Shown here: piece after piece, positions 1-62,805 of the stretch
How positions within the stretch are numbered: position 1 is the first letter of the stretch
Layout of the letters: each line of letters opens with the position of its first letter
Origin: Carcharhinus amblyrhynchos
Taxonomy: Eukaryota
Assembly: GCA_965287045.1 (NCBI GenBank)
Contig: OZ336880.1
Location: 73,408,001 to 73,472,000 of the forward strand
Direction: 5' to 3'
DNA length: 64,000 nucleotides
Program-made: the position numbers and the translations under genes
The notes under the pieces: model-generated
Databases searched by the model: none
Seen by the model: only the letters and a program-made list of their open reading frames with translations
What the model was told of the DNA's origin: nothing

Positions 1-974
1 ATATAACACAAAGCATTTTTTTATTTCTTGCACTAATAAAACAATACATTAACTGTTTTTCAGTTGGCTTTCATTATTCTTTCAAAACGTTTGGTGCTGA
101 AGTGTGACGGAATATTACTCTCAGAAATGCTAATTGATGGAAAAGAAGTTTATCCTCCCCACGCTGCAATAGCAAATTCAGCATTCCCTTTGTCATAAAT
201 TATTGATCAGGCTATGAAGGTCCCCTGGACTTTGCCCAAACTGGCATATAGCAGTGTTACTCACTCTGCCTGCATCTCATGTGGAGAATTTTGTCCTTTT
301 TTACGTTGGGTCTGTGAAATGTCCTTAACCCCTCAAGCTCAGTCATTACAACATTTAGTCAGTACATTGTGTTTGCCATGTCAAGAGACACAATGACACT
401 GTACTTCAGAAAAGTGTAGACATTATTTCTGCTCTTCAGATTAATAGATTTTGTCATACTCATGAAGAGCAGCAATCAATAGCACTTTACTTTGACATCC
501 ACTATCAATAGACCTTGTACCCATTACTAGGGATGGTTAATAGATAGTCCTTCAGAATCCTTTTTGTTGCTCATAATAAGTTGGAAATAATTGCTTAAGA
601 AATGGTGTGAATGAACAATCATAAATATTTGTTCTCTTGACAGGTGATTTATTGCATCATATTGTTTGGTCTGATACCTATATCATAATAATATGATATT
701 TGTGTTATGTGCTTCATGAGCCAATTACAAACAACTATTGAATCAGCTCTCATGGGTTCTTAAAATAAAACAAATAAACAAATAAAATAAAACTTCCATG
801 CAAACTTATTTCTGTGCTTGCATCCAAAGTTGGATATCTTAAGAATAAATTAATAAAAACTATTAAATTTACTTCTAGTACAATCATATCAAATGGTTTT
901 AATATTCCATCAAATAGAAAATCAAAGTATTGAAATTACCGCTTACAGTACCAATATTCAGGTTGAGTGTTGCT

Positions 975-2150
975 GAAAAGAGAGACTTAAGTTGCCAAAG
1001 CTTTCATTCATCAGGACAAATGCAAGAATACCAGATTTTAAATGATCACCACAATTTACAACACAAGTTGATTCTGATTAGGCGAGGAAAAAGCCATGGA
1101 GCAACCAACAAGGAAGTATAGGTGCCTCACATTTCCAGTAATTTGATAACAGTGCAAGGCTTGAATATATTTATTTTGATTGCAGAAAACAGGTCCATGT
1201 GTGTGAATGTATGTCACTTCTAATGAGCATAAATGTTCCATTTTACAAGCTTCAGTTAAATTGGTTCAGGCATGGTTATGAACACAGTCAGGACTGTTCA
1301 GCAAGTGCTGCCCAATTGTAGAATCACATCAAAGAATAGAAGTTTTGCTTTGGGTTTTACAAGCGCAGCTAAGTTTTAAGTTTATTTATTGGTCTCACAA
1401 GTAGGCTTACATTAACACTCCAGCAAAGTTACTGTGAAAATCCCCTCGTCACCACACTCCGGCACCTGTTTGGGTACACTGAGGAAGAATTTAGCACGGT
1501 CAATGTACTTAACCAGCATATCTTTTGGACTGCGGGAGGAAACCCATGCAGACAAGAGGAGAACATGCAGACTCTGCACAGATGGTGACCCAAGATGGGA
1601 ATCGAACCTAGGTCCTTGACGCTGTGAGGCAGCAATGCTAACTGCTGTGCCACTGCGCTGCCCTGTTTGAGTATGTTCTACATTGCGAACAGCTAGTGAA
1701 TGTACTTGGCATTACAATGGCACTGGAAGCTATGCACAATGTTACTCAGTTGTATGGACCAACAACAGCATCCTGTTGGTGAGAAATACCAATAGCATTG
1801 CCACTGTATAGTAGCAGTGCAAAATGGCTTACTCACCCTGTTTGTTAAATTTTTGGATACTCTGCCTTTTCAGGGTAATTTAAGGAATACCAGGGACTTT
1901 ATGTCCAAATTTGGAGGCCTTTAGCCCTTTTGCAGGTCTGTATGATTCACAATGAGCAATCATCTGATCAGGATAGCCATTGCCCTGCAGGATAATTTTT
2001 ATGCACACTATTTCTGTATCAAGCTTGCAAGGTGGAAAATGACTTGCGCCCTATCTACAAGATGGCTGATTAGGTCAATCTTAATGTGTATATTGGCCAG
2101 TGAAAATTTGAACAACAAGTTAAGGAACTGTTTTTTTGTGTTACAATGCA
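975..2150 (-). mobile_element. Penelope-like retroelement relic (RT thumb, GIY-YIG endonuclease, 3' end with hammerhead remnant), split by a SINE
   Basis: Minus-strand peptides in order: FTGQYT, KIDLISHLVDRAQVI, IKIILQGNGYPDQMIA (NGYP motif), VFLKLP*KG, SNIVHSFQCHCNAKYI (GIY-YIG-like), LEVTYIHTHGPVFCNQ. Then CTGATGA..GAAAGCTT at 991-1017. Confidence 0.8.
1371..1663 (-). mobile_element. tRNA-derived V-SINE (HE1-like head, tail type 2)
   Basis: Minus strand GGGCAGCGCAGTGGCACAGCAGTTAGCATTGCTGCCTCACAGC..GGTTCGATTCCC (Pol III A/B boxes), V-domain, tail ending AATAAATAAACTTAAAACTT. Confidence 0.88.
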
Positions 2151-2391
2151 GTGGCAATGTGATTTGCATTTCCCTGCTCACAATTGCAAAACGCAAACCA
2201 AAATGTCTAATACTAGATCTGATTCTGTAATTGGAAAGCACGTGTTGACGAATCCTGAGTGTGCTAATAGCTACATGAACAAACAATCTAAGATAATTAG
2301 CTGAACTTGTAACATGGCTCATTTGTGCTTGCTAGAAGTAGCATGCATTCATTTGCAACAACTCATTCTATGCAAACAGAAAAGATACATA

Positions 2392-2743
2392 GAGGGGGCG
2401 ATGGCCTAGGGGCATTATCACTGAACTATTAAACCAGAAACCCAGCTAATATTCTGGGGACCATGGCAGATGGTGAAATTTGAATTCAATAAAAAAAAAA
2501 TCTGGAATTAAGAATCTGCTGATGACCATGAAATCATTGTCAATTGTTGGAGAAATCCATCTGGTTCATTCATGCTCGCTAGGGAAGGAAATCGGTTGTC
2601 CTTACCTAGTCTGGCCCACATGTGACTCCAGAGCCATAATAATGTGGTTGACTCTCATTAGCCCTCTGAACAAGTGCAACCAGGGGTGGGCAATAAATGC
2701 TGGCCAGCCAGTGATGCCCATGTCCCACAAATGAACAAAATAA
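2392..2743 (+). mobile_element. tRNA-derived SINE, second family, with LINE-derived GGGCAATAAATGCTGGCC tail
   Basis: Homologous to 36590-37132. The 3' end matches the LINE tail at about 62720-62800. Confidence 0.7.
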
Positions 2744-3221
2744 GAGCCTTTTTTGAATTACCTGGATGTAAGAGGAGCCTTTTTTCCAGGTTGCTTTCTC
2801 CAAAATTGAATAAACTTACAAACCAATAGCACCCTTTTATCTTACGGTATAAATTGTCATGAATATTTAAAATTTGGCATTCTTATATTTGTCATGGTAA
2901 GGTGCAAGAGAAAAACTTTTACAACATGTGTCTCTTTTCAGAAATATTGATATTATACTATGGTGGAATTAATAATACTAGCTTTAAGACTGCCTTGTTA
3001 AGAAATTGGACTATCAGGCTATTGGTAAAAAAAAGTGCCTGGTCATGAGTGTTGGTTCAGGTCTAGTGTTGGTAATGTAGCATATTAATACATGCTTTTA
3101 TCTTCTTATCTTTTCTTTGAACTTGAATGTTCTTTTAATTAAAATTGAAATGATATTTCAATTGACACCAAAATGTACTTCTACTGAATAATATATGTTC
3201 CCAGAACAAATAATAAAGAAG

Positions 3222-3610
3222 TAATTTACATTTATACAGTGCCTTTGATGTTCTCAACTCTTCAAAGCCAATTAAGTACTTTAGAAGCGTAGTCACTTTC
3301 TGTAATGTCGGAAGACATCACAGCCAATTTTCACACAGCAAGGTCTCATAAACGATAATCGGATAAATGACCAGATAATCTGCTTCTGTGATGTTGCTTA
3401 AGGGGTGAATACTGTTCAGGACACTTATTCTTCAATTTATACAGTGGGACCTCTTATATCTTCCTCAGTTTAAGATCCCAGCTAACAGAAAGCACTGCTG
3501 ATAACGCTTCATGAGTTATCAGCTAGCATGATGTGCAATGCCGCTGGAAAGAGTAACACCCGGAGCCATGATTCAAGAGATGAGAAGGCTATCACTAAGC
3601 TGAGGTTGAC
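3222..3610 (-). mobile_element. Deu-domain SINE (SacSINE1-like), decayed
   Basis: Shares gtagtcact..cagccaattt..cacagcaag..gaccagataatctg blocks with the copy at 11090-11530. Confidence 0.6.
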
Positions 3611-7143: not shown

Positions 7144-7266
7144 TACTACGGCTGAACCATGGCTCATCTGACAACTCGGAGAAGAAAAGAGTTAAGAGCA
7201 GACTAAAAAAATTCATATCAAGGCGACCTTCACTGCAAACTTTACAGGAGAAAGGACTGATTAAAG
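7144..7266 (+). CDS. ARHGAP15: Internal coding exon (123 nt, phase 1-1) of a RhoGAP gene, ARHGAP15-like; region just N-terminal of the GAP domain
   Basis: Polypyrimidine acceptor tttattcttttatccccag and donor AG|gtaatg. Translates xLRLNHGSSDNSEKKRVKSRLKKFISRRPSLQTLQEKGLIK(D), close to ARHGAP15 FRLHHSASDTSDKNRVKSRLKKFITRRPSLKTLQEKGLIKD as I recall it, and closer than ARHGAP9/12/27. Not in the ORF track. Confidence 0.93.
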
Positions 7267-8452: not shown

Positions 8453-8604
8453 TGAGTAAAAATAATTGCAGTAAAGTTTTCAAACCATCTCTTCCAATAT
8501 TGGATTTGAGATATATGGCAAAAATGGCAGTTTTTCCACTTAAAATGGCAAAACTATGAGACTGCAACAGACTGAATTAACGAGCCTGGATCAATAAGAG
8601 ACAT

Positions 8605-8961
8605 GATGTGGAGATTCTGGCGTTGGACTGGCTAAGCACAGTAAAAAGTCTCACAACACCAGGTTGAAGTCCAACAGGTTTATTTAGTAGCACAAGCCAC
8701 AGCTTTCGGAGTGCTGCCCCTTCATCAGGTAAGTGGGGGTTCTGTTCACAAACAGGGCACATATAGACAAATGCGATTTACAAAATAATGGCTGGAATGT
8801 GAGTCTTCACAGGTAATCAAGTCTTAAAGGTACAGACGATGTGAGTGTTCAGAAGGTTGAGCACAGATTAAAGAGATGTGTGTTGTCTCCAGCCAGGACA
8901 GTTAGTGAGACTTTGCAAGCCCAGGCAAGTCAAGGGGATTACAGATAGTATGACATGAACC
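8605..8961 (-). mobile_element. Penelope-like element 3' fragment (pLTR) with hammerhead motif
   Basis: Collinear with 24314-24681. Minus strand CCACTTAC-CTGATGA-AGGGGCAGCACTCC-GAAA-GCT-GTGG followed by AATAAA. Confidence 0.8.
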
Positions 8962-18987: not shown

Positions 18988-19318
18988 GGGTGGCATGGGG
19001 GCACAGTTGTCAGCACTGATGCCTCACAGCGCCAGGAATCCGGAGTCAATTCAGGCCTTGAGTCACTGTCTGTGTGGAGTTTGCTCATTCTCCCCGTGTC
19101 TGTGTAGGTTTCCTCCTGGTGTTCCAGTTTCTTCCCACACTCCAAAGATGTGTGGGTTAGTTGATTGGCCATGATAAATTGCCCTCAGTGTCAGGGAGGT
19201 TAGGAGGGTAAATACGTGGAGTAACGGGGATCGGACCTGGGTGGGATTGTTGTCAGTGCAGGCTCAATATGCCAAATGGCCAGCTTCTGCACAATAGATT
19301 CTATGATTCAATGATTCT
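18988..19318 (+). mobile_element. HE1-type V-SINE with CR1-derived tail (type 1)
   Basis: tRNA head, gggtttcctcc-type V-domain, tail ctgggtgggattgttg..ctatgattcaatgattct. Confidence 0.9.
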
Positions 19319-21899: not shown

Positions 21900-22060
21900 A
21901 CCACTAGGTGGGAAGAGGACACAAAGCCAGGCATTAGCATGAGCTGCTGCAGAAGAAGGGAACAGAAGGGCATGGAGGAAATAGAGATCCCTCTTCCTCT
22001 GATGCTCCTCCACAGGGACCTCAAATGCTGCACTTGAGAACCTGGACACCTTCTTCCTCA
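21900..22060 (-). pseudogene. Myb/SANT-like DNA-binding ORF relic of a PIF/Harbinger transposon
   Basis: SRFSSAAFEVPVEEHQRKRDLYF resembles the PRFSxxxLExLVxxVxxRRxxLF start of Harbinger Myb/SANT proteins. Confidence 0.55.
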
Positions 22061-22134
22061 GCTCCTGGGTTATTCAGCAATGTGCCACTGTTCTCCAGCC
22101 ACAACTGTTCATGTCTAAAGCCCAGAGTGAGTGG

Positions 22135-22308
22135 TCATGCTGAATTGCCCCTTAGTGTCCCAAGGTTAGGTGGATTGGCCATGATCAATATATAAGGTTA
22201 TGGGGTTAGAGCAGGGATTGGGCCAAGGTCGGGTGCTCTTTCAAAGGGTTGGCGCAGACCCAATGGGCTGAATGGCCTCTTCTGAACTGTAGGGATTCTA
22301 TGATTCTA
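22135..22308 (+). mobile_element. V-SINE 3' half (CR1-type tail)
   Basis: catgctgaattgccccttagtgtcc..gggattctatgattcta. Confidence 0.8.
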
Positions 22309-24313
22309 AGGAGCCACATTTACCTTTCACAAGAATTACATCCAATCAGTGGTTGTGTGCTATATCTGTAGGTGTCTTTTAGCATCTACAGGCAAGTTCA
22401 AATTAACCAGCAATTAGGACCAAAGTCATGGGCTAAATCCAAGCTTCCCAAACAGGCGAGTATGCACTATAGTATATTAAAACTGGTTATTAGCCAATTA
22501 GCAATTTTCGTGTTGGGGTTTTCTATCCGAAAGCTCCACTGTCCTGGCACCATTTCTTGCTCCCTTTTGTCAGTTCCTTAGTTAAGTAATTTAACAAGAT
22601 TATAGCATTTATGTTGCAAAATGTCAGCTGGTCTTATAACATAAATTGGGTGAAGAGTTGTGTCAGCAGGAAAATGGCATGAGTTTGCATGTTTTTTAAG
22701 AGTCCGAGATGGTCCATAATATATGTTTCATGATTAATTTACCATAAAAATATTAAACAGCTGTGGTTGTTTAAATGATTCATCAGCATAACGCCACACT
22801 AAAACTTTTCAATCAAGTTTCTTCAGGAGCTTTCGGTTCTGGGTGTTTAAATAGAGTATATTTTTAATGGATATTAAATTGATCATAGCTATGACTGAAT
22901 ATTATCATTATATTAATAATTGATTCTTAATTGTGATTGGCTGAAAGGTCACAAATCATTTGACAATTTTTGGTAGTATAACATTTAGTCATAATTCCAA
23001 TGAAATGAGGTTCACTGTTGCAAGTAAATAAAAGTGATGGTAACCATGGTGATTAAGCGTTGCATAATGGTTACACTTGACTTACTAATATTAGATTAAG
23101 TTGCAGTAAAAAATATGTTTGGTGGTGTTGATCACCTGGGTGTGTTAGTGATTCAACAGCTTTTGACTGTGTTAAACATGGGCCAGAAGCAAGACTGCTG
23201 GTGAAGCTATTTGAAGCAAGATTTTCCACTCGGCATCAGTAGCTGAGCAACATTTGAACTGCTGTTTTTGTTTTCTCCATGCCGCTTTCAGCGTTAATAT
23301 TCTGGATATAAGATTTAGTAGCAAGTTAAATTTTCCAGTCAGGTCCTGTGATAATTGGAATGCTTGGCGTGGACCCAGTTAACAACAATGGCTATTTATT
23401 AACTAATGCAGACGATGTACAGACTGCTTCAATACATGTCTGCTCCATTCACTTCTAGGATCAGTTCTGATGGTAAAAGCGCATGCCCACTGGAATTTGC
23501 ATGCTCGTGTCCCATTGGGTGATCAGGTCACATGAGCCTCTGGGCACTGAACCCTTAAAGAAGCTGACTGATACACCCTTCCCCCTTTAAGTCCCCTAAC
23601 ACATTATGGCCGGGATTCTCCAGCATTTCACACCAGCGGGATTGTCCAGTCCTGCTGCAAGTGAACGGAAATTTGGCTGAGTGCAGCGGGGTGCAGGGGG
23701 TTGGGGGGGATGGGTGGTGGGGGGAGGTGAATGGCTGGAGGATTCTGGCCTGTATCTTCAAAAGTTGAAGTATTTACATAGCATTAACAATAATAAATAT
23801 TTTTAATATAACTCATCAGAAGCTCAGTCTATCAGGAGATTTGTTTTCTCTGGGAGTGACATCGCTCAACTGGCTGTAATTCAACACAAGAGGTAGATTC
23901 AGTTGGACTTTCTTGAGTCTGTTTCTCTTTTTGTAAAGTCACATCACTTTCCACTGTTTCCTGGCTTTCAATGGGATCAACAGTTGGTTCTGCAACAGGC
24001 TGACTTACCTCTTCACTCCTTTGATCAGCGACAACACAACTAACAGGCACAATTGGAATAGCTACAACACTTGCCCTTGAGATGACTCTCAACTTCTTAA
24101 ATGATTGAAGTGCTTCTTTAGAACTTTGTCCTAAACTTCCGCTTTGTAGGATGCTGGACCAGCTCTGGCCTCTACAACTCCTGGGACCCAACTTGGCCTG
24201 TTCCCAAATCTTTTGCAAATACTGGATCTATTTATCTCAAATGCTGTTGCGAGTGTTGATGAATCATGGTTCCTTTCCTGCATACTCCACTCTTTCTGCC
24301 AAACTTGGAATTG

Positions 24314-24681
24314 ATGTGGAGATGCCGGCGTTGGACTGGGATAAACACAGTAAGAAGTCTGACAACACCAGGTTTAAGTCCAACCGATTTATTTGATAGT
24401 AAACTCACAAGCTTTCGAGGTTAACCTCTTCATCAGGTGACTGGAGAGTTCAGAGCATTTAAGCACAGACAGTTTACAGATTACTAATTAGAATGTGAAT
24501 CTTTACACCTAACCTGCTATTCAAGTCTTAAAGTGGCCAACAATGTGAGTGGAAAGAGCACTGATCACAGGTTAAAGAGATATGTATTGTCTCCAGACAG
24601 TACAGTAAGTGAGGTTTTACAAACCCAGGCAAGGTGCGGGGGTTACAGATAGTGCAACATGAACCCAAGATCCCTGTTGAG
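24314..24681 (-). mobile_element. Penelope-like pLTR fragment nested in the Gypsy element
   Basis: Collinear with 8605-8961; flanked by direct repeat ACTTGGAATTG (24303-13 and 24682-92). Confidence 0.85.
24405..24440 (-). ncRNA. Minimal type I hammerhead ribozyme motif, intact
   Basis: UCAC-CUGAUGA-A-GAGG-UUAA-CCUC-GAAA-GC-UU-GUGA: stem I UCAC/GUGA, full catalytic core, perfect stem II, palindromic AAGCUU stem III. Confidence 0.8.
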
Positions 24682-27600
24682 ACTTGGAATTGGCAGGGTC
24701 AACCTGGTCCTCAAAGTCTGACCCAGTAGGAGCTCAGCAGAAGCTAGTCCAGTGTTTGTACATGTAAGCAAACAGCAATCTTGCTAACTTTGGTTCAAGG
24801 CAGTGATAATTTCTCCATGTCAGCTTTGAAGGCTTGTACTGCATGTTGCATGAGCCCATTAGATGAGGAGTGATATGGCGCTTTTCAGATATACTTGATT
24901 CCATTGTGTGTGATGAAGCTTTGGAACTCAGCCCCTGTGAGTGCCGTTCCATTGTCTGAAAGAAGTACTTCTGGCAATCCATGGGTGGAAACTGGAGCAG
25001 TTTCTCAATTGTCACATAGGATGTTGTGGCTTTCATTTAGCATGCCTCTGACCCGAAAACAGGAACATTACACCCATAAATGGGCCAAAAAAAGTCAACA
25101 TAAACTCTTACCAGCAGCTAGGACTTCCTTTTCAATTTGAGAATACCCTTGTTCCACATCTGAAAGGGTTCTTGATATGTATCCAATGGGTCTGCCTGAC
25201 CCATCATCTATCCTATTGGATAACAGAATTCCCATCCCATACAGGGATGATTCACATGTGAGAACCAACTTTTTTTGTGGGGCCAAAATGTGCTAACAGG
25301 CATCATGATTGAAGTGTTTGTATCATTTGGCTGAAAGCTTCCTTTTGTGGTGTTTTTCACCACTATCTCTGACGTTGCTTCAATTGTGCATGCAAAGGTG
25401 CCAGCGATGTTAATGTATTTGGGAGGAACTGCCTGTAGTAGTTGACAAGCTCAAGGAAAGATTTGAGTTCTGAGGTGTTCCTAGGGGTCAGTGTTTCTTT
25501 AACGGCTCTCACTTTGTTCTCCATAAGATGAACCCATCTGTGCATCCACTCTACAACCTAGATACACCAACTCATGAACTCCTCCTTGGAGTTACTGATA
25601 TGTTTGTTCTCTGGGGCTGAGGCCCCCTGTGTCCACCTTCAGCTTCAGTGGACACTATTCACCAATAACTGCGTTGTAATTGGGACAACCTTGCCTACGT
25701 TATGTTATTCATTAACAAAATAATGGATTCACCTTCCAGATGACTATATTATGCGCTGAAGCTACATTATTTATCCTGTTAATACTGGGCAGGCCCTGCT
25801 TGTTCTACACTTGTCTTATATGCGCTCTTGTTCCAAATGTGAAGCATTCTGCTTTTCTGAATCAACACTTGTCTTGGGACTGAATCCCCCCACATCGGTA
25901 GCACACTGCATTTCTCCTTGGCTGTTGAATATAATTCCTATACTTTTGAATTATTTTGACTTCAATGCTTCACCCCTTGCTTAAACCAACACCTTCCCTT
26001 TTGGCCTCACTGCTGTAGCTGCTTCACCAAACCTGGTGGATCTCACTGTTGTGCATCCTTTGTAGCTCTGGGGACCTCTTCTCTACACTTTCCATTGCTA
26101 AGGCCATTTTCAACTTTTTAAAAAGTTACTTCTAACTCTGGCAGTAGCCTCTTCTGTACTGCCATATTGTTTACATCGCTAACCAAACAGTCCCTCAGCA
26201 TGTCATTCAATGCTGGACCAAATTCACAATGCTCCATTATTTGTCTTATCCTTACTAAAAAGGCTGCAATGATTCCTCTTTTGGCCCTCCCAACTGAATT
26301 AGCTGTTTACATTTACAATATTACTGAGGGCTTCAGGTGGTAATGCCGTTTCACTAGTTACATGGGTTCTGCAAAAATTTTGGTACCAGGCGCATCTGGA
26401 GATATTGAATCCTTGGTCAAATTATATGCCCCAGCCCACACATTGTAATCAATATAACCTCCTCCTTATCCTTCCCCTCTATTCCATTAGCCTGGAAAAT
26501 TATTGCAAATACTCCACATTCTGTACTCAGTCTTTGGAATTTGCATCAAATGGCTCCAACTTGCCAAAGATGGTCACGTTGTTAATTTTTTCTTTGCAGA
26601 TTGGATCCAAGTTATGCTCATGACTTATGCTGGACTATTTCAAATGAGATCACCTTTGCACTTTTTTTCAGGACCTTCCATTTTCTTCATCGCCAATGTG
26701 ATGATTGCAATGATTGGCGACAGGTTAACAACAACAACTATTTATTAACTAACTCAAACTAGCGTGCTTCAGTATGTGTCTTCCCCCATTCAGCTCAAGG
26801 ATCAATTTTGATGGTAAAAGCCTGTGCTCAGCCCTAGGATTTGCACAGTCCCACCTCACTGGCAATCAGGTCACATGATGTGATTGGCGCAACTAGTGGG
26901 CTGAAGGGTCTGTTTGTGCTGTAGTGTTCTATGTTCTATATTCTATGATCCCTGGACACTTGTCCCGTATGTAGGCTCACTGCTGCAGGTCCAAAATAAA
27001 GGATTTCATCGCCATCTTGAAGAGGCATTTCTGGAGACTCTTTTTATTGATTTGAGAAGGGAGGAGAGTCAACACTAATGGTGTTGCTGATGAACAACAG
27101 ATAAAAATCCTAGATAACAGTTTGCATCAGTGCATCATTTGTTTGTGAACTCATGATTTGCCAGACATTTTATGTCGCATTCAATGCGCTATTTTTGATT
27201 TGACTTTAACCAGAGGGTTCTAACCGCATTGATAGAGCAATGTGGAAAGTCCCTGAACAATTTCTGCTTCGTCATTCACCTGGGCTTCATAACGTTAAAA
27301 GAACCTTTGGAAAGGCAATCTAGGCACACATCTGAATAAGCCACACACTGACAGATGCAGTAGGAAAGAAGAGACAACAGGGAGAAGGCCTTACCACTAA
27401 AAGTGTACACAGTATTGATTTGGATCTGCGGGAACAGGCTGGCATTTTTGACTTAACAGATGAGCTTTCGCTGATGCATCCCATGAGTTGCACAAGTATT
27501 GTAAATTGTCGTGGGTAATTTCTATAGCTTTGCCAGGGATTCTGGCAGTTTCCCTGTCAGTCTATGATACATAGTTGTATCCAGCAGATGACATCTCCTC

Positions 27601-28284
27601 CAACATACTACTGCACAGACAATATAATTGCAATTTCTGAGCTTCTCAATGCATTGTCACATTCACCAACATAAGTCCAACATGCTGGAAAGAAAAGCGA
27701 CGGAACAGTGGAGCCAAAAAGCATAAACCTCTATTGCGCGAGTTTCACCTTCAAACTGGCTCAGAGATCAGTTCTCCTCAGCAGCTTTAAACATTATATG
27801 AAACAGATTCCACTCATTTTAAATTGATTGCTACAACTCTAGACTAATTAACTGAAACAGACATTTTGTCCTGAATAAAATATCAATAGAACTATGAACA
27901 TGAATGATGACAGTCTAAAACTATTTGTATGAAGGGGAAAAAAAAACAACATTGGATTTCAGTCCAAATCTTTAGATGTTGAACTGTGCAAAATTATGAT
28001 TCCCTTAAAGCTAAATTTCTACAAAACTATTGATATTGGTTTTTGAACACTTTGAATTGCAAATTCTCACCATAACAATCAGCTGGGGGAATGCCATGGC
28101 TCTTGTAAAGTTCTTTTAATTCGCATTACATTGGGGTATTTGTTGACTCAGATTGAGCAGTCACTCCACTTGAGGCAATGCAATGTTTGTTCATGAATAA
28201 AAGTTAGGCTACTTTTTCCATGTGTTCATTGGTGCGTTGGATGCATTTCAAGAGAAGAAATGAGGTGTCATAATACATCGCAAT

Positions 28285-28587
28285 GTGGCACAGTGGTTAG
28301 CACTGCTGCCTCACAGCACCAGGGACCCAGATTCGCTTCGCAGCTTGGGTCATTACTTGTGCAGAGACTGCACATTCTCCCCGTATCTGCGTATGTTTCC
28401 TTCGGGCTCTCGGGTTTCCTCCCACAGTCTGAAAGATGTGCTGGCTAGGTGAGTTGGCCATGCTAAGTTCGCTCTCAGTGTATCCGAACAGGTGCCAGAA
28501 GGCGACTAGGGGATTTTCACTTTAACTTCATTGCAGTGTTAATGTAAGGTTACTTGTGACACTGATAAATGAACTTTAAATTTAAAC
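28285..28587 (+). mobile_element. V-SINE, tail type 2
   Basis: gtggcacagtggttagcactgctgcctcacagc head; tail cattgcagtgttaatgtaag..tgtgacactgataaa. Confidence 0.88.
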
Positions 28588-29410: not shown

Positions 29411-29683
29411 GGGGCGGCACAGTGTCAGGGATGTGGGTTCGATTCCTGGCTTGGGACACTGTCTGTGCAGCCTCCACATGTCTGCATGGGTTTCCTCCAG
29501 ATGCTTCAGTTTCCCTCCACAGGCTGAAAGACGTGCTGGTTAAGTTCAATGACCATGCTAAATTCTCCCTCAGTCTACTCAAACAGGCGCCAGAGTGTGG
29601 CAACTGGGGAATTTTCACAGTAAGTTCACTGCAGTGTTAATGTAAACCCACATGTGACACTAACAGATAAACTTAGAAACTTA
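29411..29683 (+). mobile_element. V-SINE, tail type 2, internally deleted
   Basis: gggcggcacagtg..gggttcgattcc; tail tgtgacactaacagataaacttagaaactt. Confidence 0.85.
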
Positions 29684-29864
29684 ATACAGTTTTGGAGTTC
29701 AACTGTAATTTATGCACACAGAGTCTAGTTAAACAATTGTTTCTGCATTGATGCAACGTGGTTTTACTGCTGCATCAGGGCACAATGTGCAATATCATTG
29801 TGATTTGAATTTTGGCAAGCAAGAGATTGTCTCACAAATGATCGAGAAAGACCTTCCATTGATA

Positions 29865-30245: not shown

Positions 30246-31695
30246 GATTCAGAATGTAACTTTTTTTTTACTGCCAGTTAATTAGGGAAATATGGCAATT
30301 CTAATTTGAACTGGATAGTTCTTTAAAGAACATAAAAACGTAAAATATAGTTGCACAAAACAAAATACTTGAACTAATACATTTGAAAACTAAACACTTC
30401 CTCGGGGCTCAGCAATTAGGTTCAGATGCTACTTGTTTCTGCTTGCAAAGGGGTTAATTAAAAAAAAAATTACTCGCATTTATGCCTCTGGCCTAGTTTC
30501 CTCCGTACTTCAGAAACACTTTTTGATAATTGCTAATGAATTGATAACAGTTAATGAATTCTTCTCAGAGTCAAATATACTGACCATGAAACATAAAGTT
30601 TGGAGTTAATATTCTATACAGGTTTTCGAGGGCATAGCGACGATAAACGTTAATTGTTTATGAATCTATTCGAATATTAAGCCATTTCCACGGATGTTAC
30701 TTTTATTATTTATATTCCTTTGTCCAGCAAATGCCACGTTGTAAGGTAGTAAATATGTTTCATGATTGATTAAATGTGCTTCAGTTTATTTGAGAGAAAA
30801 AAAATTCTTTCATTTTTTGAATACTGGAATAAATATTTGACATATTAGAGCTGAGACATTGTTCTTTGAAGGAAAATTCTTCAGTTTAGTCAACATCTGT
30901 GTTACCAAGTCAACGGTGATAATTATCTTTCATAATTGGCTGGAAAATGTTCATGCTTACCAAATGTGATTTCAATGGGCTGCCTTACATGTGTGCATTT
31001 CAATGACCTTGACCATCATATAACACTCCTCAGGGGGCTCTTCCCAGATGAAAATACCTTAGAAATGCAGTGGGTGCTCCAAGCAATAATTACTCGTAGA
31101 AAATGTGCGGTTATGTGACACATATATTCACAGCAGAATAAATAGTACCAGAATTCACTCTGAATTTACACCATGGATTTAAAGTAAATAACCATTTGGA
31201 AGCACATCAAGGATATAATGACAGGAGTGGATCGTGCAACACTGAAGTCACATTAATTTACATGCAATTCCAGTTGTTAAAAAAAAACTTAACAGAAATG
31301 TGAGCTTGCTTTCGAGACTGCAAGCAGCCTGTCTACAGCTAAAAAGAAGTAATAATCCTGTGAACGTCTTGGTAGTGGCTGATACAGAAAGGGAGTGACT
31401 TACAAATACAGTGCATTTGAGAGTTTGTGATGGAGCTTTTTGATAGGATTGACAGTGGACAATAATAAGCTTGTGATCAAAGTCATCTCACATTCCTACT
31501 CAAGAAAGGCTTGAATGGCAGTGGAGGAAAAAAATCTTCACTTGCATTGTTCTTTTTGCATCATCAATACATCACAAAAAGCTAGTAGCTAATTACTTAA
31601 GTTAAAGGTTAAAATGGTATTCACCACCCTCCAAAAACAAGCAAAACCGTGCCCCTTGTGCTCATGTAAATAAATAATGTGGAGATGTGGGTACA

Positions 31696-31829
31696 GTAAG
31701 AAGTCTCACAACATCAGGTTAAAGTCCAACAGGTTAATTTGGTATCACGAGCTTTTGGAGCACTGCTCCTTCATCAGTGATACCAAATAAACCTGTTGGA
31801 CTTTAGCCTGGTGATGTGAGACTTCTTAC
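31696..31829. mobile_element. Palindromic Penelope-derived mini-element with one central hammerhead core
   Basis: About 53-nt arms gtaagaagtctcaca..ggtatcac / gtgatacc..tgtgagacttcttac around minus-strand CTGATGAAGGAGCAGTGCTCCAAAAGCTC. Confidence 0.85.
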
Positions 31830-37988: not shown

Positions 37989-40449
37989 AATGGGTAAGCG
38001 ACTGCAGCAGAAATGTAAGAAGTAGTCAAATTATGCTCGAGAAGTTCAACACCATGAACTTACACAGCTGTCTGCAGTTGTTTAAAGTTTATTTATCAGT
38101 GTCACACGCAGGCTTGCATGAACGCTGCAATGAAGTTGCTGTGAAAATCCCAAGTTGCTCAGCAAAACAGAGAAATGACGATCTTGCCCAACTCCATTAG
38201 TAACCTGAATAGATGGGTGACTATCACAGCAATCTTGGAGCTCAGTAGTACGTGAGGACAGTGGAGGATGAATGGGGGTCACCTTATCAGCAAAGCTGCA
38301 TTTATAAGTGTCAAACAAGAGAAAAGAGGACATGTGAGGTACTCCTATATGTTGTATGAGGAGCACCATCTTTCAACCAGTAAAAGCATAATTACTATAC
38401 ATATATAAATATAACTACCCTTCTGAGCTTTTAGCCATTACTTTATCGAGGTGGATTCTGAAGATTTAGTACTTGAAATGTCAGGAGACATATTTCACTG
38501 ACAGAAATATGACAATGTGGAAATCCCATTGGCTATATGTTGCTACAAGCTGGGCAAAAGAAAACCTAATATGTGCTACTTATCATGCAAGAGAAGCTAT
38601 CTTAAAACAGAGCACATTGCATTGTTTAAAAAAAGAACAATTTTGTTTAATGTGCAGAGCTCTCACTATGGTACATACAAGAATTAAAAATAATCTTCAA
38701 GGCATGTGCCAGCTGGGTTTGTTACATTTTGACACGATAATCTATCTAATCTAAAATTGTCCAAGGGAGGGAGCCAAATCATTCAATTCAAATATAAACA
38801 TTCATCGTGACTTGCCCAAGTATATGTTTGATGGACAGCTTTTTTTAATTTAAGAGGTTATTGAAATTTAAAAAAAAATCCAATCACTATTGGGCAGCCT
38901 TTTCAAAATGTAACGATTGGTTAAGGTCTTAAAAGACTCCATTGTTATTTTGATATGTTTATCAATCTGTACTTTGCAATTCAGGGGTCTGATTAAGAAA
39001 GGGTTAAAGAACTACTATTCACTATCATAATCACGGCTTCAAGGGTTGCAAACTTTTTTGTTTACTCCACATGGTAAAGCTTTATAACACAGTAAAATAT
39101 AGTTTATTATTGCTACAATTCCTCTGTTCTATGACAGTTTGATACAGTTATTTGGCAATTCAAGCCTAAAATAGGATTTAGTGTGAATGTTGCTTTGCTG
39201 TCTTTTAAAAAAAAACTGAGGAAAATTCTGTGGGAGCAGGAACCAGAAGCAACAATTGACGGTACTGAAGGTGGATTCTCTACTCATTATTCGAGGTGCG
39301 CTATGTTGTTTCGCTGAGGTATCAAGGCAAGTGGAAAAATTTGTGGAGATCTTGAAGAATAGTCTGAAGCACAGAAGTTAAAAGGATTTGGAGTAAACTG
39401 ATAAAAAGAACCCACAAACATGACAAACTGGTGGAAGAGGCAGTGTCTATTTGCTAGCTAATATCTCAAATCATAATGAGTGAACATCTTCTATGTGTTT
39501 TCTGCACAAACGTTGTATGCTCCAATATGGCTTACATGTGATACTTTCTGCTATTTGCTTTGTAAGCATATACTGGATGCATAAACAAAACTTTTTTACT
39601 TTTTTATTTCTCCTTGTTATTCTTACTGACATTTCTTTTTCCTGCTTCATGGAATACATCCAAATTTGCATACTTTTGGAAATTAGAATGAATTAGTAGA
39701 ATGTCAGTAAATTCCTTAACATGTCGTGCCAATGAGAACCTTGGACGCAGCAATTAAACACAAACTAAACCTTAGCTGATGGAATTTGGGTCGACAACAA
39801 GATAATAGTAAAATAATCCATATGAACTGTTTGGCGTTTCCTCTCCATCTATTTGCCCTCACTTCAAGTAGAAGCAGCTCAGGGAAGGGACAATTTGGGG
39901 AGAAGGGTTGTTACCTATTTTACATTCCAATAATAAGTACCAACACACAATTCGGAGTTCTACTTGATCATCTGGCTACCAGCGAGTCTGTGATACTGAT
40001 TGACTGTATTCTAAAGTCGGGGGAAGAATTTGGTGTTCGAAAGTCAGTGTAGTTCTCCACCCTGGAAAGAAGAACCCTCAGGCCCTTTTGTAAGTGTTCC
40101 ACTTTAAATATTACAACAATATTATCTTTACTAGTCTTCACATGGGTTCCACTTGCATCCCAGTATGGCTCAGTATGCCAGGGGCACCAAGGACACAACG
40201 GGGGGCACGTTTCCCATCCTGCCTGCCACGGGAATCATAGCAGGTAGGGGGCACAATATGCAAAGGTCTGTTGATCTCGGGTGGGATTTTCTAGTTTGGG
40301 GGCGAGTGCACAGGAAATTCCAACATGGAGAACACCACCCTTAATCCAACTCTCCACCAATGGCTATGGCCTTGTTCAGAGTTTGTTGAAGGACTGCTTG
40401 TATCAGCGATGATTAGGAACTCCCAGATTACATTGTCACACGGTTTATA

Positions 40450-40772
40450 TGGCGGCACAACAGTTAACACTGCTGCCTCACAGCGCCAGGAACCCAGGTT
40501 CAATTCTAGCCTTGGGTCACTGTTTATGTGGAGTTTGCACATTCTCCCCATGTCTGCCTGGGTTTCCTCTGGGTGCTCAGGTTTCCTCACACAATCCAAA
40601 GATGTATGGGTTAGGTTATTTGGCCATGCTAAATTGCCGCATAGTGTCAGGGGACTAGCATATAAATATGTGGGGTTACGGGCATAGGGCCTGGATGGGA
40701 TTGTTGTCAATGCAGGTTCGATGGGTCAAATGGTCTCCTTCTGCACTGTAGAGATTCTATGAATCTACGATT
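40450..40772 (+). mobile_element. HE1-type V-SINE, tail type 1
   Basis: tRNA head, V-domain, ctgcactgtagagattctatgaatctacgatt tail. Confidence 0.9.
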
Positions 40773-41887: not shown

Positions 41888-43058
41888 GATGATTGGTGTT
41901 ATTTACAGCTCATTTTTAGGTTTGGTCATGAAGCTGTTTCCATGAGCTTCCCACAAATTCTATAAATAAGACTGATTTACTAACTACTTTATTTTGCTTA
42001 AGGAGGCTGATAAATAAATAAATTGGCATTCTTGCCCAACATTCTAATTAGTAGAATTGAAGCCACACAAATTAAATATGGAAGGACAAGAACAGTTAGT
42101 ACCTAAACTGATGTCTTGAATCTAATGCCTCAAAAATAAATTTAAATAACAAATTTCATTCAGGCATAATCCATAAATAAATGTTAGGTTTTCAGCAAAA
42201 ACTTAATAATTGACTCTGAGTTAATTTTGAGCAAAGATAGAATTTTGGCACCATATTCAATAAAATAATTTGACTTGAAAATGCAGGGTGATAGTTTTGA
42301 AGAGGTCAGTCATATCTTTCAGGAATCATAACTTACAAAGAATAAGTTCTGGATAATGTGAGTTGAGTAGAATTGGCTGTAGATTTAACATCTAAAGTGA
42401 CATTTTTGTAAAGATAAAAACTATTCTTGGAGTTTTTAGTCTGTTTACACAGAATTTAGTCAAAGGCATTTTATTTTTGCCAATAGCATTAGGGCACTCC
42501 ATAGCAACTGCATTCAATTAGATATCTATATTATACAAACAGTCATATCCTTACTGACAGTCCATTCAGTATTCTTATTGTACGTCAGTAGAGAAATTAC
42601 TAGCATTTAAAAATGACTTGCAGTAAACCAGAAATTCCTCACCTGAAATAAACTACCTTGGTAACAGTATTAAACAAATCCATTTCATTAAGGTGAATTC
42701 ATTGAATTGTTGTAATAAAGGCTTTGATTTTGTGGTTACAATTGTAGCAAAACTCAGCACTCATTGCCATTACTTTGCAAAACTAACAACAGCTTCTGGT
42801 GTGCGCACATGCATAATTGAATATCGAAATCCAAAAACTGCAGTCAGTGGTTGTGTCCTCCTCCACAGGATGTACCGCTGAAGAACTCTCAGATGGAAAC
42901 AATCTAAAAATCACTGAATTGGTGTGCATTTCTACTTTTTACATTATTCTGGCCATAAAAATTGTTTACAAATGTACACCTTGTTGAATGAACAGTAACT
43001 TATGTTTTTAACAGTGGATAGTGTCTTTTTTTATTACTAATCAACCTCTTTGGTTCAA

Positions 43059-43231
43059 TAAGAAGTCTCCACAACACCAGGTTAAAGTCCAATAGATTTA
43101 TTTGGTATCATGAGCTTTTGAAGCGCTGCTTCTTCATCAGGTAAGTCATCTGATGAAGGGGCAGCGCTCCAAAAACTCTCAATACTAAATAAAACTGTTG
43201 GACATTAATCTGGTGTTGTGAGACTTCTTAC
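43059..43231. mobile_element. Palindromic Penelope-derived mini-element with two opposed hammerhead cores
   Basis: Inverted arms centred on catcag-gtaagtcat-ctgatg. Cores at 43108-43144 (-) and 43146-43180 (+). Confidence 0.85.
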
Positions 43232-43419
43232 TGTGCCCACATTACACTGGCAGGATCTTTTAGTCCTGCTAATGGTGCACCCCTGCCATGGGCTTGCCAG
43301 CAATGAAGGGGGTGCATTCAATGGGAAACCCCATTAATAATGGCAGGACCAGAAGGTCTCACCTGCCTGCAATGATGGGGCTGTCTCCCACCTACCATGT
43401 TTACTCCTATAGGGAAATC

Positions 43420-47215: not shown

Positions 47216-47314
47216 ATCAAGTATTCGGCTGCCATTTGACTGTACTGTGCAAGCGCGAGGGAACCACAGTTCCAAGATTTGTGAAGCTTTGCATTGAGGC
47301 TGTGGAGAAAAGAG
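47216..47314 (+). CDS. ARHGAP15: Internal coding exon (99 nt, phase 1-1), start of the RhoGAP domain, ARHGAP15-like
   Basis: Acceptor tgtctttgtattgtgttgtag and donor AG|gtaggt. Translates (D)QVFGCHLTVLCKREGTTVPRFVKLCIEAVEKR(G). Joins the 7144-7266 exon in frame (G+AT = Asp), giving the GLIKDQVFG motif. Confidence 0.95.
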
Positions 47315-49845: not shown

Positions 49846-50140
49846 GGGCGGCACAATGGTTAGCACGGCTGCCTCACAGCACCAGGAACCCGAGTTCAAT
49901 TCCGGCCTTGGGTGAGTGAAGTTTGCACATTCTCCCTGTGTCTGCATGCATTTCGGTTTCTTCCACAGGTGTACAGGTTAGGTGGATTGACCATGCTAAA
50001 TTGCCCCTTAGTGTCCCAAGATGTGTTGGTTAGGGGTGATTAGCAAAGTAAATATGTGGGGTTACAGAGCAGGGCCTGGGTGGGATGCTGTAATGGAAAG
50101 CCGATGCAGGCCTTCTATGCCATAGGGGTTCTGTGATCTG
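49846..50140 (+). mobile_element. HE1-type V-SINE, tail type 1
   Basis: gggcggcacaatggttagcacggctgcctcacagc head; cagggcctgggtgggatgc tail. Confidence 0.88.
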
Positions 50141-50553: not shown

Positions 50554-50768
50554 AAGATAAAAGCAAAATACTGCAGATGCTGGAATCTGAAACAAAATCA
50601 GGAAATTCTAGAAAATCTCAGCAAGTCTGAAGGCATCTGTGGAGAGAGAATAGAGCCAATGTCAGAACTGCTCCAGGAAAGGTCATCCAGACGTGAAACG
50701 TTGGCTCTGTTCTCTCTCCACAGATGCTGTCAGATCTGCTGAGATTTTCCAACATTTTCTGTTTTGTG
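50554..50768. mobile_element. Fold-back Penelope-derived element (family B) with 15-bp target duplication
   Basis: TAAGAGTCTAAACTT at 50539-53 and 50769-83. Arms gaaaatctcagca..gcatctgtggagagagaa / ttctctctccacagatgc..tgctgagattttc. Decayed hammerhead ggtcatccagacgtgaaacgtt. Confidence 0.8.
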
Positions 50769-51820: not shown

Positions 51821-52112
51821 GAAGGAGGTCATTTGGCCCATCAAGTGTACCAACCACAATCCCACCCAGGCCCTATCCCCATAATCCTATGCATTTACCC
51901 TAGCTAACTCCCCTGACACTAAGGGGCAATTTAGCATGCCCAATCCACCTAACCCGCACATCTTTGGACTGTGGGACGAAACCCGAGCACCCGGAAGAAA
52001 CCCATGTAGACACGGGGAGAACATGCAAACTCCACATACGCAGTGACCCAAGTCAGGAATTGAACCCGGGTCCCTAGTGCTGTGAGGCAGCAGTGTTGAC
52101 CACTGTGCCACC
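51821..52112 (-). mobile_element. HE1-type V-SINE, tail type 1
   Basis: catagaatcctacagtgcagaagg..gctgtgaggcagcagtgttgaccactgtgccacc. Confidence 0.92.
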
Positions 52113-53689
52113 ATTGCTTCAGAAGTCATGAAGCAATGTATAGAAGTAATCTGGGTACGCTTAGGCAAAAAGAAACAAAGAGGTGTTTCCGTCCCTCAAC
52201 AGTTAACGTTTGATTATTGCTTAAGATCCCCCCAAAATTAAGAAAACATATTTTCTTTAAACTCAAGCTTTAAGTTAACAAATTCTAGATTCATGGGGAA
52301 TTCAACAGTTCAGGGGAAAAATATACAAGATGTACCTGCAGTCTCTCATACCCACTGTATCAAAAAAAAAGCCAATAACAAAATTGCTTTTTCTATACAC
52401 TTAAAATGTTGGGGAAATATGGCTAGCCTCGTTAACTTTCTCTTCCCACGGTTCACATGTTGGTTTCCTCTTTTTTTCCTCCACACATTCCAAAAATGAA
52501 AACTTTCCACGGTTTTGCACTTAGTACAAAATATCACTGCAGTGGAATGCTTGTGCGTATGTTTCTTCCAAAACTACTTTTCCAATTATTTACCCAACCA
52601 TCTGTGTCATCAGCATTCACGTGTAGTAAAAGGAACTTTCTCACCTGTCTAATTTGGGCAAGTGCTACGATGAAGTAATGAACCAGTCGGAAAGAGTCTC
52701 AAAGGAGTAGAACAACTTCCAAACAACTTTTGTCATTATTGCTCCTGGATCCAGAAGGCTGTTAGTTCACCAAGGTCAACCTGGTTTGCATTAGCTTAAT
52801 CTTTCAGGTCCTGAAGGTGTAACATGGTCTCTCTCAGCTTGCTGACTACCTACAGTATCCGACAAATCGATATTCTCTGATTCAGAGAATTGGCTTCTTG
52901 AATGAATTCAGCATAGACCTCACCTCCTTGTGTGTGCCTTGAACCTGTCCACTGTAATCACTTTCCAGCATGAAAGGCTGACCAAAAGATGTGAATAAAA
53001 AGTTTAAGCTCGTTTGAATTTAAATTTACCATTTGTATCGGATCCACCAAAACAAGTGGCAACAATCATGATCCCAGTGGATTTCAACTGTATACTTGTG
53101 TTTGTGACATGCAAAACACAGCCATCCGCACACATATACACTTACACTCCAAACCCTGCCAAAATTTTCCTTCATTATGGCAAGTGACATATACATACTT
53201 GGAGCAACAACAATAAATGGTAGGAACTCTATGTGCAGCGCCTAATTTAGGATTCTTTCATGAACTCGTAAAACTTATGATGCCTCAAAGCCTTTGTTTT
53301 GGTATACAGTGCCGATATCCAGTAATAAATCTGCTTTTGAATGTTGGTGGTCTGAGTAAATAGTATTCATCTGATTCTCGACTGATTGGTGCCAACAACA
53401 ACTTGTATTTATATAGCACCTTTAATAGTAGTACAACATACCAAGATGCTTTGTAGGAGTGTAATTGGACAAAAAAAAATTAACTGCAGGAGACATTGGG
53501 CAAAATTTTTGACTGATATTCCCAGCCAAAATGATGGAACCTGCAGCACTGTATCTGTCAAAGGGATGATTTCGAATTAAATGATCTCCAGGATGGATCA
53601 GAAAGGTTCAACTATATATAGATTTCTGAGCTTACAGCAATCACTGGAATAGAGAGTAGTCCTGTCTTCCCAGCTATCTCACGCTTACT

Positions 53690-55230: not shown

Positions 55231-57599
55231 TATCAGAGTTGTAAGAAGAGCTGGTAAAATTTCTGCCATGTCATGATGAAGGTTGACAGCAGGGAAGTGC
55301 AGCTGAAAAATGAGTGAAGTGACTTCCGAGAAGTTGGAAATCACCTGTCCAGCAGTCAGAGCTCACTCTGTGCTGTGGTCGTGGCTGCACTTCTTCAGTT
55401 TCACTGATCAAAGTCTTAGCAACGTGTCAGCTTTGCTGAAGAAGTCCCCACATTCCCCCCGGTTGGTTAAAACAGCAGTCAAAAACATAGGGCGCGATCT
55501 TACTGGCCGTTCATGCCCCACGTTCCCACTGCAGTAAAGTCAGAGAATTTGGCGACCAGCCAAATCTCCATTTGCTGCAGCAGGATGGGGAATTCCCGCT
55601 GGTATGAATGGCTGTAACTTTGCAGCCCCAGTTAAATATTTTAATTAATTGCTCAACAACTGCAAGGGTGTTACTCTCTCACTTGCAAAAACCACCCAGG
55701 CGAAACCTGGGAGTGGGCAAGATCACGTCAAGAACCCGACCCAGCAATATTTTCATGGGATTTAACTTGTCCTCATGCACCCAAACCCGTGAACCCTTTG
55801 TCCAGTAAAACTCCCCCATTAGTTGAGCCGACTGAAATCTTGTTCAAAGATGTTGGGGAGAGGGGTGGAAAAGCAGGGAGGGTTCGTGAGCACATTTAGC
55901 ATCTAGACAGCTGAAGGCATGGCAGCCATTAGTTGGGTGACAGAAGTTTGGGATGCATCAGAGACCAGAACTGGAGAAATGAAATGCTCTCAGAGGGATA
56001 TATGTTCGGAAGGAATTTCAGAAATACGATAGGGAGATGTCATGAAGGAATTGAACATGAGGATAAGAATTTTTAAATTAGGCACCTGGAGACTCCATCT
56101 TAATCTGTACCAGTCAGGGCTAATGTAGAGAGGATACATGTCCAAGGTCTGCCAGTACATACCTTGGTTCCTACTAATTCAGCAAAGGGTCTTCCCAATG
56201 CTAAACCAACACATATTGTATTTATTTATTGATTGGGCTATATTTTCATTCTAGGCTTTAAAGTTTGAAATTCCCTGCCTAAGTCATTCTACCTTTCTGC
56301 CTGCCTTTCTTCATTTTAAAAAACTCCTCGAGCTCTTCCTCCTTGACCGAGCTCTTTGATCATTAAAAATGTCTCGTGATTTCTATTCCATTGAGGGTGC
56401 TACATAACTGCAGGTCACTGTTGTGGCTTAGCCATATCCACTGATTATAGTTTTGTCACAGAACGGTACCGTTTTCAGCACAATAATGCAGTCTGCAGCA
56501 GTGTAAACCTTTATACTCATGCACATGCAACAAGTCACAGCAGATGCTGACATTAATGCATTGGACCTAGTCTAATACCAAATAACGTTAAACCAAAATT
56601 AGAGATTGTACTTTTTTTGATTCCCTAAAGAGACTGAATGTGCCTGTTTATTTTACTTAAACAGCCTTCAGTAAGACACAAGTTCAGTTGACAAATTTGA
56701 ATGCAGGTGCTGCCTCAACCATTGTCACATTTATGTCACCAGAAATGGCTCTATACTTTCTGGAATTGATACAATGGACAGTTCCTCCCAGAAAGGTCTG
56801 AATTATAGTTGACATTTCATGAACTTCCTAATGTTTTACTGAGAGGGTCAATGAACTAAAATTTATGTGTTCTGCAAACCTCGAGTCACAAAAAGTTCAT
56901 CCTGTGTACCTCCAACAACAGCTTTCCTTCTAAACAAAGACAGCAAGTAAATCAGTTCAGGGATCCTGCATCCTGCTTTCAGATGTCACACACCACATTC
57001 CTGCTGGCTGTATTCTCTTCATGGTGGGAGAAATAAGGCACATGGACAATTCTCATGAAAGAATCCAGACAAGACAGCATTAAAGCGAAAGGAAGAGACA
57101 GGGGCTGATGCAGTTAGGCACCATTTTAATGCTCCACTGTCCGTTTATCCTATTTAGAAATTTAGTCGTACTTTCCTCTCGATATTTTGTGCAATACCAA
57201 CCTTTGACCAACTTATTAGTGAAAAGCATAGTCAACAAATTAGTCAGACATTAGTGAGAAACCCTATGACCTGGCTAGGAGCAGTGAACCACACAGTTTA
57301 CACAGAATTGTTGCAGTGCAGAAGGAAGCCATCTGCCTCATTGTCTGCACCAGCTCTCTGAATGAGCAATTTGAGCAATGCAATTGCCCTTTTTTTCATT
57401 CCTTAGCTCTAGCCAAGTTGATTCTATCCTTGACCCCTCTGGGACATTCTGTTCCTCTAAGCTCTGCAATGATCCCCTTAATCAATACCACCATTCCTCC
57501 CATCGTTCATCATTTAGAACATAAAACATACAGCATAGAACACTACAGTACAAACAGGCCCTTCGGCCCACAAGTTGTGCCAATCATATCCATACCTAA

Positions 57600-62199: not shown

Positions 62200-62805
62200 C
62201 CAACTATAACGACAAGGGCAGCAGATGTATGGGGACACCACCACTGCAAATTATCCTTCAAGTCACATACCTTCCTGACTTGGAACTGTACTGCTGCACC
62301 TGGGACGGCATTTGGCACAGTGGTCAGCTTTGCTGGCTCGCAGTGCTTAGGGACCCGAGTTCAATTCCTAGCTTGGGTCATTGTCTGCATGTTCTCTCTG
62401 TGGGTTTCCTCCAGGGGGTCCAGTTTTCTCTCACAGCCCGAAAGATGTGCTGTGTAGGTGCATTGGCCATGCTAAATCCTCGCTCAGTGTACCCGAACAG
62501 GCACCGGAATGTGGTCATCCGAGGATTTTCACAGTAACTTCATTGCAGTGTTAATGTAAGCCAACTTGTGACACTAATAACAAATAAACTTAAAGCTTCA
62601 ACTTAAACTTCACTGTCACTGCACAAAAGTTCTTGGAACTCCATTCTTAACAGCACTGTGTGTGTGCCTACACCTCATGGGCTGCTGCGATTCATGAAAA
62701 CAGTTCACCAATACCTTCTCAAGGGCAATTAGGAATGGGCAACAAATGTTGGCCTTGCCAGCCAAGCTTACATCTGAAGAAGAAATAAAAAGAAAAAAAA
62801 ACCTC
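62200..62805 (+). mobile_element. LINE 3' end interrupted by a V-SINE (tail type 2, 62301-62608)
   Basis: LINE blocks ccttcaagtcacatacc and ctcaagggcaattaggaatgggcaac flank a full SINE ending tgtgacactaataacaaataaacttaaagcttcaacttaaactt. Confidence 0.8.

Follow-up and report, generated by a model that had tools for sequence, protein, structure and literature searches.

A minimal hammerhead motif in a truncated Penelope-like element nested within a decayed Gypsy element in an ARHGAP15 intron of Carcharhinus amblyrhynchos

Nested elements in an ARHGAP15 intron

The stretch of C. amblyrhynchos DNA analyzed here (the window, 64,000 nt) contains two plus-strand exons, between which a 40-kb ARHGAP15 intron holds a series of nested elements (Table 1). 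The next PDB match of the downstream exon after ARHGAP15 is ARHGAP12 (1.2e-8), and a later exon, located 104 kb downstream of the window, matches 3byi at 2.3e-25. The upstream exon was located by means of what we take to be short ARHGAP15 motifs. Database searches returned nothing for it; its splice sites and phase fit the next exon.

Table 1. Coordinates of the features in the window (minus-strand motif parts read from high to low positions) and of three full-length copies elsewhere in the genome
Feature	Position	Strand	Remark
ARHGAP15-like exon upstream of intron	7144..7266	+	splice sites and phase fit next exon
ARHGAP15 exon downstream of intron	47216..47314	+	best PDB match 3byi ARHGAP15, E 8.7e-10
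Gypsy 5' LTR	26697..26987	-	complete but interrupted by ~69 nt of another repeat
Gypsy body	23576..26696	-	decayed, internally deleted; PBS-like tract, gag/pol remnants, RNase H, integrase, PPT-like tract
Gypsy 3' LTR	23347..23575	-	
Gypsy 5-bp duplication	26992-26988 and 23346-23342		
5'-truncated Penelope-like 3' end	24314..24681	-	368 nt; 91-92% BLAST identity to family copies
C-terminal codons and stop of Penelope-like ORF	24643..24681	-	
Target-site duplication, upstream copy	24682..24692	-	11 bp; last 2 nt also match element
Target-site duplication, downstream copy	24303..24313	-	first 2 nt also match element tail
Private changes of window copy	24441..24453	-	G at 24441; 11-nt deletion at ~24452
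Stem I, 5' arm	24440-24437	-	
Hammerhead C3-A9	24436-24430	-	
Extra A between 9 and 10.1	24429	-	
Stem II	24428-24417	-	4 bp, UUAA loop
Stem-loop II palindrome	24417..24428	-	perfect, 12 nt
G12-A15.1	24416-24413	-	
Helix III, loop-less	24413-24410	-	AGCU
G-C of helix III	24412-24411	-	
U16.1	24410	-	
U17	24409	-	
Stem I, 3' arm	24408-24405	-	4 bp with 5' arm
Full-length copies L200-L202	G000:C1:24054800-24059000, C1:73238900-73243100, C16:12162000-12166300		

The Gypsy element spans 26987-23347 on the minus strand and is bounded by TG...CA LTRs and a 5-bp duplication. It also carries PBS-like and PPT-like tracts, presumably genuine by their pattern and position. Pfam detected RNase H in the body (E 5e-14) and a weak integrase below the cut-off; RNase H precedes integrase, the Ty3/Gypsy order, with the integrase match under the Pfam cut-off. 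The initial annotation had described a Gypsy provirus, and its LTRs, duplication and RNase H agree with this description, but there is no room for env because only about 240 nt separate the integrase frame from the PPT. Over 218 aligned columns, identity between the two LTRs is 73.9% (K2P 0.33), and the body bears 47-66 stops per frame. Judging from its sequence, the element is old and decayed. The repeat of about 69 nt inside the 5' LTR lies at 26949-26881 on the minus strand and matches positions 57517-57590 at 85%.

The integrase region of this element is interrupted by a Penelope-like insert, which contains, in order, the last 12 codons of an ORF, a pLTR with the hammerhead motif, and a tail. 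The tail extends to the A that opens the start codon of the family (24312), a position that is common to the duplication; the family ATG lies 96 nt past the predicted cut. The target carries ATT. None of seven related Gypsy copies showed a match to the insert, and in four of the seven the flanks are continuous with each other. Identity between the window copy and its 29 best relatives is 94.0%, against 95.0% among those relatives, and the insertion is about 6% diverged. Contigs from three differently labelled organisms reach 25-28 nt into the insert from the Gypsy flank, under the 31-nt bar; the flanks were covered in three runs, with the repeat interior not assignable to the window locus. By these contig sequences, the insertion may be shared across organisms and old. 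One further run, presumably of RNA, covered the repeat but neither flank, and so speaks neither for nor against transcription of the locus.

The nesting first reported for this locus, in which a Penelope fragment sits in a Gypsy element within an ARHGAP15 intron, was borne out. This three-level nesting is real, yet it is what a repeat-rich intron yields. The motif lies on the minus strand, antisense to the ARHGAP15 pre-mRNA and, as also stated at the outset, co-oriented with the Gypsy LTRs. Since the motif is on the minus strand and ARHGAP15 on the plus strand, it cannot cut the ARHGAP15 pre-mRNA in cis.

Several further repeats were observed in the window. Relics of other Penelope-like subfamilies with hammerheads lie at 8604-8961 (minus strand), 31685-31829 and 43056-43242, the latter two being short head-to-head inverted pairs. 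SINE-like repeats of roughly 300 nt, on both strands, lie at 1370-1653, 18995-19298, 28282-28585 and 29427-29684, and the same multi-copy family also occurs at 40449-40752, 49846-50080, 51846-52117 and 62310-62602. An inverted repeat at 50595-50765 has 68-nt arms, a 35-nt spacer and 84% complementarity.

The hammerhead motif and the frequency of intact cores

The minimal type I hammerhead motif occupies positions 24440-24405 of the minus strand and reads exactly as first claimed, with a complete core, 4-bp stems I and II, a CUU triplet and a predicted cut between 24409 and 24408. All the core elements of minimal hammerheads in PLE pLTRs (CUGANGA, GAAA and UH) are present, as is the G10.1-C11.1 pair (G24428-C24417). 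The extra nucleotide between 9 and 10.1 is an A in 46/46 family copies. Loop 3 is absent and the palindromic 15.2-16.2 segment is AGCU, with its G kept in 45/46 and its C in 46/46 copies of the family. In hammerhead numbering, A14 and U17 are core positions, so that helix III is limited to AGCU; the stem III described in the initial annotation as the palindrome AAGCUU is indeed palindromic and loop-less, but shorter than proposed. Likewise, the term intact holds for the core but less so for stem I, in which G24441 breaks the fifth pair of the 6-bp family norm. This break was seen in the window copy alone among 46 distinct rows. U17 is a slower cleavage site than C17. It is the norm of this family (42/46 copies), and no rate for the CUU triplet was found in the available part of PMC11875169.

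It could be argued that such a short motif is a chance look-alike without ribozyme ancestry. The hammerhead covariance-model check suggested for this locus did not support the motif, as no hammerhead family was matched in an Rfam scan of 22000-27000, even at E values as high as 10, and the 36-mer folds modestly better than its shuffles (z -1.9); both results are unsurprising because the motif has no helix III. In addition, covariation is confined to two pairs, with counts inflated by related copies. In contrast, the minimal-hammerhead descriptor matched the window once while 300 first-order Markov resamples gave 0.01 matches on average, the motif has a fixed place in both pLTRs of full-length elements, and four features that had not been sought, listed in the text of PMC4209133, are all present. 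A fortuitous origin is hardly credible, and the sequence is that of a real minimal hammerhead. By every testable feature it is a minimal hammerhead of a Penelope-like pLTR.

In the family alignment, 18 rows have G-C in place of A-U at the second pair of stem II, and 4 rows show a compensatory change in one stem I pair. Two-sided changes amount to 22 cells versus 9.3 in shuffles, in 2/10 pairs, where relatedness inflates the cell counts; the number of covarying pairs (2) does not exceed that in shuffles. This sequence pattern would fit selection in a few source lineages. An alternative distal helix pairing columns 6-9 with 53-56 was rejected, as two-sided change was absent from it.

In the folding of a window-copy dimer, an inactive duplex reached -29.0 kcal/mol, compared with -16.6 for two separate monomers and -14.1 for the double hammerhead. 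In this model, the palindromic stem-loop II of the window copy is predicted to favour the inactive duplex. All six family copies folded also preferred inactive dimers, by 4-15 kcal/mol. Core-intact copies that formed stem I no better than the window copy numbered 19/52, 26/52 and 23/50, and in folding the window copy ranks close to the median of its family. An apparent misfolding of the window copy relative to copy L127 alone was discarded, as it was gone in the comparison with 50-52 copies. Folding is weak evidence here, because the six family copies also favour inactive dimers and the window copy lies near the median; nearest-neighbour models do not appear to separate live from dead ribozymes.

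The initial annotation had implied that an intact copy is rare, which is contradicted by the genome. A 34-letter family motif has 10,621 matches genome-wide and 7,794 of them keep G8, C11.1 and G12; the window copy itself falls outside this motif owing to its G at 24441. The 63-mer downstream of the motif has 516 exact matches. Ninety copies were chosen by this 63-mer alone; 3 duplicates were dropped, 50 copies span the motif and 46 are in register. The core was kept in 23/46 of these in-register copies and a strict test was passed by 11/46. Core losses fell mostly on CpG guanines (19/92 cells, versus 8/414 other core cells). Non-CpG core positions vary less than non-core positions (1.9% versus 4.2%, Fisher p 0.038), a comparison that the register filter and subfamily differences bias toward lower core variation. 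Position 7 is C in 44/46 family copies and U in the window copy, which is a tolerated outcome of CpG decay. These results demonstrated that an intact core is commonplace in this family, being found in thousands of copies.

At one CpG, G8A and C7T were observed 14 times and once, respectively, in 46 copies (L098-L187). Other CpGs are skewed too, in either direction. The G8A excess was not reproduced in the first 100 genome-wide matches listed (13 versus 9, by eye), and the skew is probably due to sampling or context.

The base rate of intact cores also bears on the idea that the host has domesticated the window copy for the processing of an antisense RNA regulating ARHGAP15. Its intronic position, its possible sharing across the three labelled organisms by the 25-28 nt contig overlap, and the precedent of conserved intronic hammerheads in RECK and other genes (described in PMC6155905) would be in line with such a role. 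However, the copy is antisense to the host gene and has a minimal architecture without helix III, its family identity of 94.0% is no better than the 95.0% among its relatives, it carries a private deletion and a stem I mismatch, and its intactness equals the family base rate. Domestication is, in our opinion, improbable in the extreme.

The Penelope-like family in the genome

A genome search with the insert returned 4,747 candidates, the best at 91-92% identity. A 917-codon open frame was found in 5 of 150 scored protein matches, many of which had identical scores, suggesting a very young subfamily. Three full-length copies that were fetched (L200-L202, Table 1) each encode 893 amino acids with DKG, RT motifs and a CX4CxxC linker. 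Copy L200 has a single ORF with RT (Pfam RVT_1, E 1.5e-9, over the cut-off) and the order pLTR-hammerhead, 893-aa ORF, pLTR-hammerhead. Its two motifs, at 601 and 3627, are 3,026 nt apart and flank the ORF (731-3409). A longer stem II variant occurs in both of its pLTRs.

The linker was also seen in copy L005, four fragments of which gave no Pfam match; a PDB search with the RT fragment gave none either. GIY-YIG/CCHH-like residues were seen by eye at the C-terminus of the full-length copies, where Pfam gave no GIY-YIG match; the residues were picked out by what we take to be the pattern of a GIY-YIG endonuclease. The linker led to the rejection of a Poseidon identity. As described in PMC8557442, a CX2-5CxxC linker is common to Neptune and Nematis, and the linker sequence would mark the present family as being of the Neptune or Nematis type.

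Insertions of this family sit in ordinary DNA with 9-15 bp duplications, and inverted 5'-truncated partner copies accompany many of its members. The 3' ends are concentrated at the start codon of the family, although a minority extends 10-15 nt into the ORF (L056-L085, L002-L030), while the inverted partner copies end mostly about 60-65 nt past the cut. These positions suggest that priming favours two sites separated by about 35 nt, which resembles the published tail. Within 190 kb, at G000:C1:5.34-5.52 Mb, a single insertion is present in four near-identical copies (L098-L101), pointing to a putative local segmental or tandem duplication.

The 5' ends of 90 copies, a sample in which 4/90 are duplicates of one locus and microhomology blurs the breakpoints, showed no peak at +1 of the predicted cut, where only 1/90 was located. 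A mild excess was seen around the cut, with 22/90 ends in the 17 nt from -7 to +9. The single end at +1 is consistent with reverse transcription of uncut RNA.

Probable fate of the window copy and comparison with known systems

Taken together, these features make it very probable that the window copy is a passive relic, lying in a truncated Penelope-like end within an older, decayed Gypsy element and cutting no RNA in the cell. The truncation, the duplication, the tail and the family architecture are direct observations. As for the mechanism, the element protein would have nicked DNA of the Gypsy integrase and, by target-primed reverse transcription as reported for Poseidon (PMC11167929), copied an uncut RNA, starting from the AC-rich tail that lies 96 nt past the ribozyme. 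An early stop of reverse transcription would have left the ribozyme copied as cargo. The hammerhead structure may be selected in the source elements, whose two pLTR copies, separated by 3 kb on the same transcript, could pair via AGCU and stem I into a double hammerhead; alternatively, two RNAs could be held together by the element protein. The window copy would then have drifted after insertion. Its core presumably survived because the divergence is only about 6% and because, of the CpG at positions 7-8, decay struck the nucleotide at which change is tolerated.

Several observations speak against the relic interpretation. All the catalytic nucleotides are present, so that cleavage with a partner RNA or protein is chemically possible, and the family keeps open 893-aa ORFs and thousands of potential partners sharing AGCU. 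The lower variability of non-CpG core positions (with the biases named above), the mild excess of 5' ends around the cut, the ordinary folding of the window copy within its family and the possible sharing of the insertion count on the same side. The initial annotation had proposed that the copy could still be catalytic if transcribed antisense, and the motif might be conditionally active: a minus-strand RNA, started from the Gypsy LTR or elsewhere, would meet family RNA and protein and be cut at 24409/24408, with no benefit to the host. The intact core, the co-oriented LTR with a 5' LTR present, and the open ORFs and 7,794 core-intact partners in the genome favour this scenario, as does the protein-aided cleavage of Poseidon. 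In Anolis carolinensis, the Poseidon hammerhead was reported to cleave only with the element protein, and insertion in vitro did not depend on this cleavage (Frangieh et al. 2024, PMC11167929).

The prediction of catalysis is nevertheless weakened on several sides. The Gypsy LTRs are only 74% identical and the 5' LTR is interrupted, stem I has 4 bp, and the palindromic stem-loop II competes. A descriptor search found no intact same-strand hammerhead partner within the 64-kb window; a cis partner is missing because the four other hammerhead relics found there have dead cores (G12A or G at position 17). The window copy also has no ORF start, to which the protein-binding region of the Poseidon RNA was mapped according to PMC11167929; this region may differ in the present family. 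The literature points the same way, beyond the protein requirement of Poseidon. A need for dimers, claimed for this hammerhead from the beginning, agrees with the text of PMC4209133, where a single minimal hammerhead of Schistosoma was left uncut in vitro and dimers cleaved at low levels, and 8/9 Xenopus retrozyme dimers were reported uncleaved in vitro (bioRxiv 10.64898/2026.07.22.740005). Conditional activity is therefore considered unlikely. A broader, genome-wide trans-cutting network, in which single copies, the window copy included, would be cut whenever transcribed in sense, with the family protein as chaperone and AGCU-bearing RNAs as partners, is a good deal less probable still. If true, it would here terminate an antisense RNA that starts in the Gypsy LTR and runs against ARHGAP15; and if the element protein allowed trans cleavage of single copies, sense intronic copies elsewhere could shape host transcripts.

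Minimal hammerheads in metazoan PLE pLTRs have been known since 2014, when Cervera and De la Pena (PMC4209133) reported thousands of them per genome. The relic shares with them, as far as described in that paper, the type I topology, the absence of loop 3, the palindromic 15.2-16.2 segment, the extra nucleotide between 9 and 10.1, the G10.1-C11.1 pair and a short helix I. The occurrence of thousands of single copies from truncated elements is also similar, and such motifs were reported in fish Poseidon and Neptune. Stem II, however, has 4 bp in the window copy and 7-8 bp in Schistosoma, and stem I of the present family reaches 6 bp, unlike that of the published motifs. Cartilaginous fishes are not named in the results or discussion of PMC4209133. 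Our literature search found no study of the present family in this group, although the supplements of that paper and of the 2026 preprint may list one.

Poseidon, as described in PMC11167929, resembles the present family in its pLTR hammerhead, its AC-rich 3' end about 90-100 nt past the cut, its ATT target and its copies spanning an uncut ribozyme; that paper also reports that no RNA-seq reads end at the Poseidon cleavage site. The two differ in the start of the ORF, which lies 96 nt past the cut in the present family and inside the ribozyme in Poseidon, and in the CX4CxxC linker, which is of the Neptune/Nematis type. The Neptune PLEs of Craig et al. (2021, PMC8557442) share with the family a single ORF with RT and a C-terminal endonuclease region (putative here, by eye), a CX2-5CxxC linker, the DKG motif, pLTRs, inverted 5'-truncated partners and a tail. 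The 9-15 bp duplications in ordinary DNA contrast with the (TA)n bias given there for Neptune, in a comparison where the clade is assigned by the linker only.

The window copy is also comparable to non-LTR retrozymes, which are pLTR-derived, hammerhead-bearing units of 300-400 nt and were reported in one chondrichthyan genome (bioRxiv 10.64898/2026.07.22.740005). Unlike these head-to-tail arrays, however, it is a single unit with an ORF remnant, lying between target duplications. The amniote intronic hammerheads of RECK and other genes (PMC6155905) are likewise of type I, intronic and of retroelement origin, but they are described as highly conserved, whereas the window copy is minimal, antisense to its host gene and decaying with its family. 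It is thus neither a retrozyme array nor a sense-strand intronic ribozyme. While the locus itself matters little, being one among thousands of relics of a known type, its family is a resource for studying the function of PLE hammerheads, as a single assembly offers open 893-aa ORFs, pLTR ribozymes in pairs and some 7,800 copies with an intact core.
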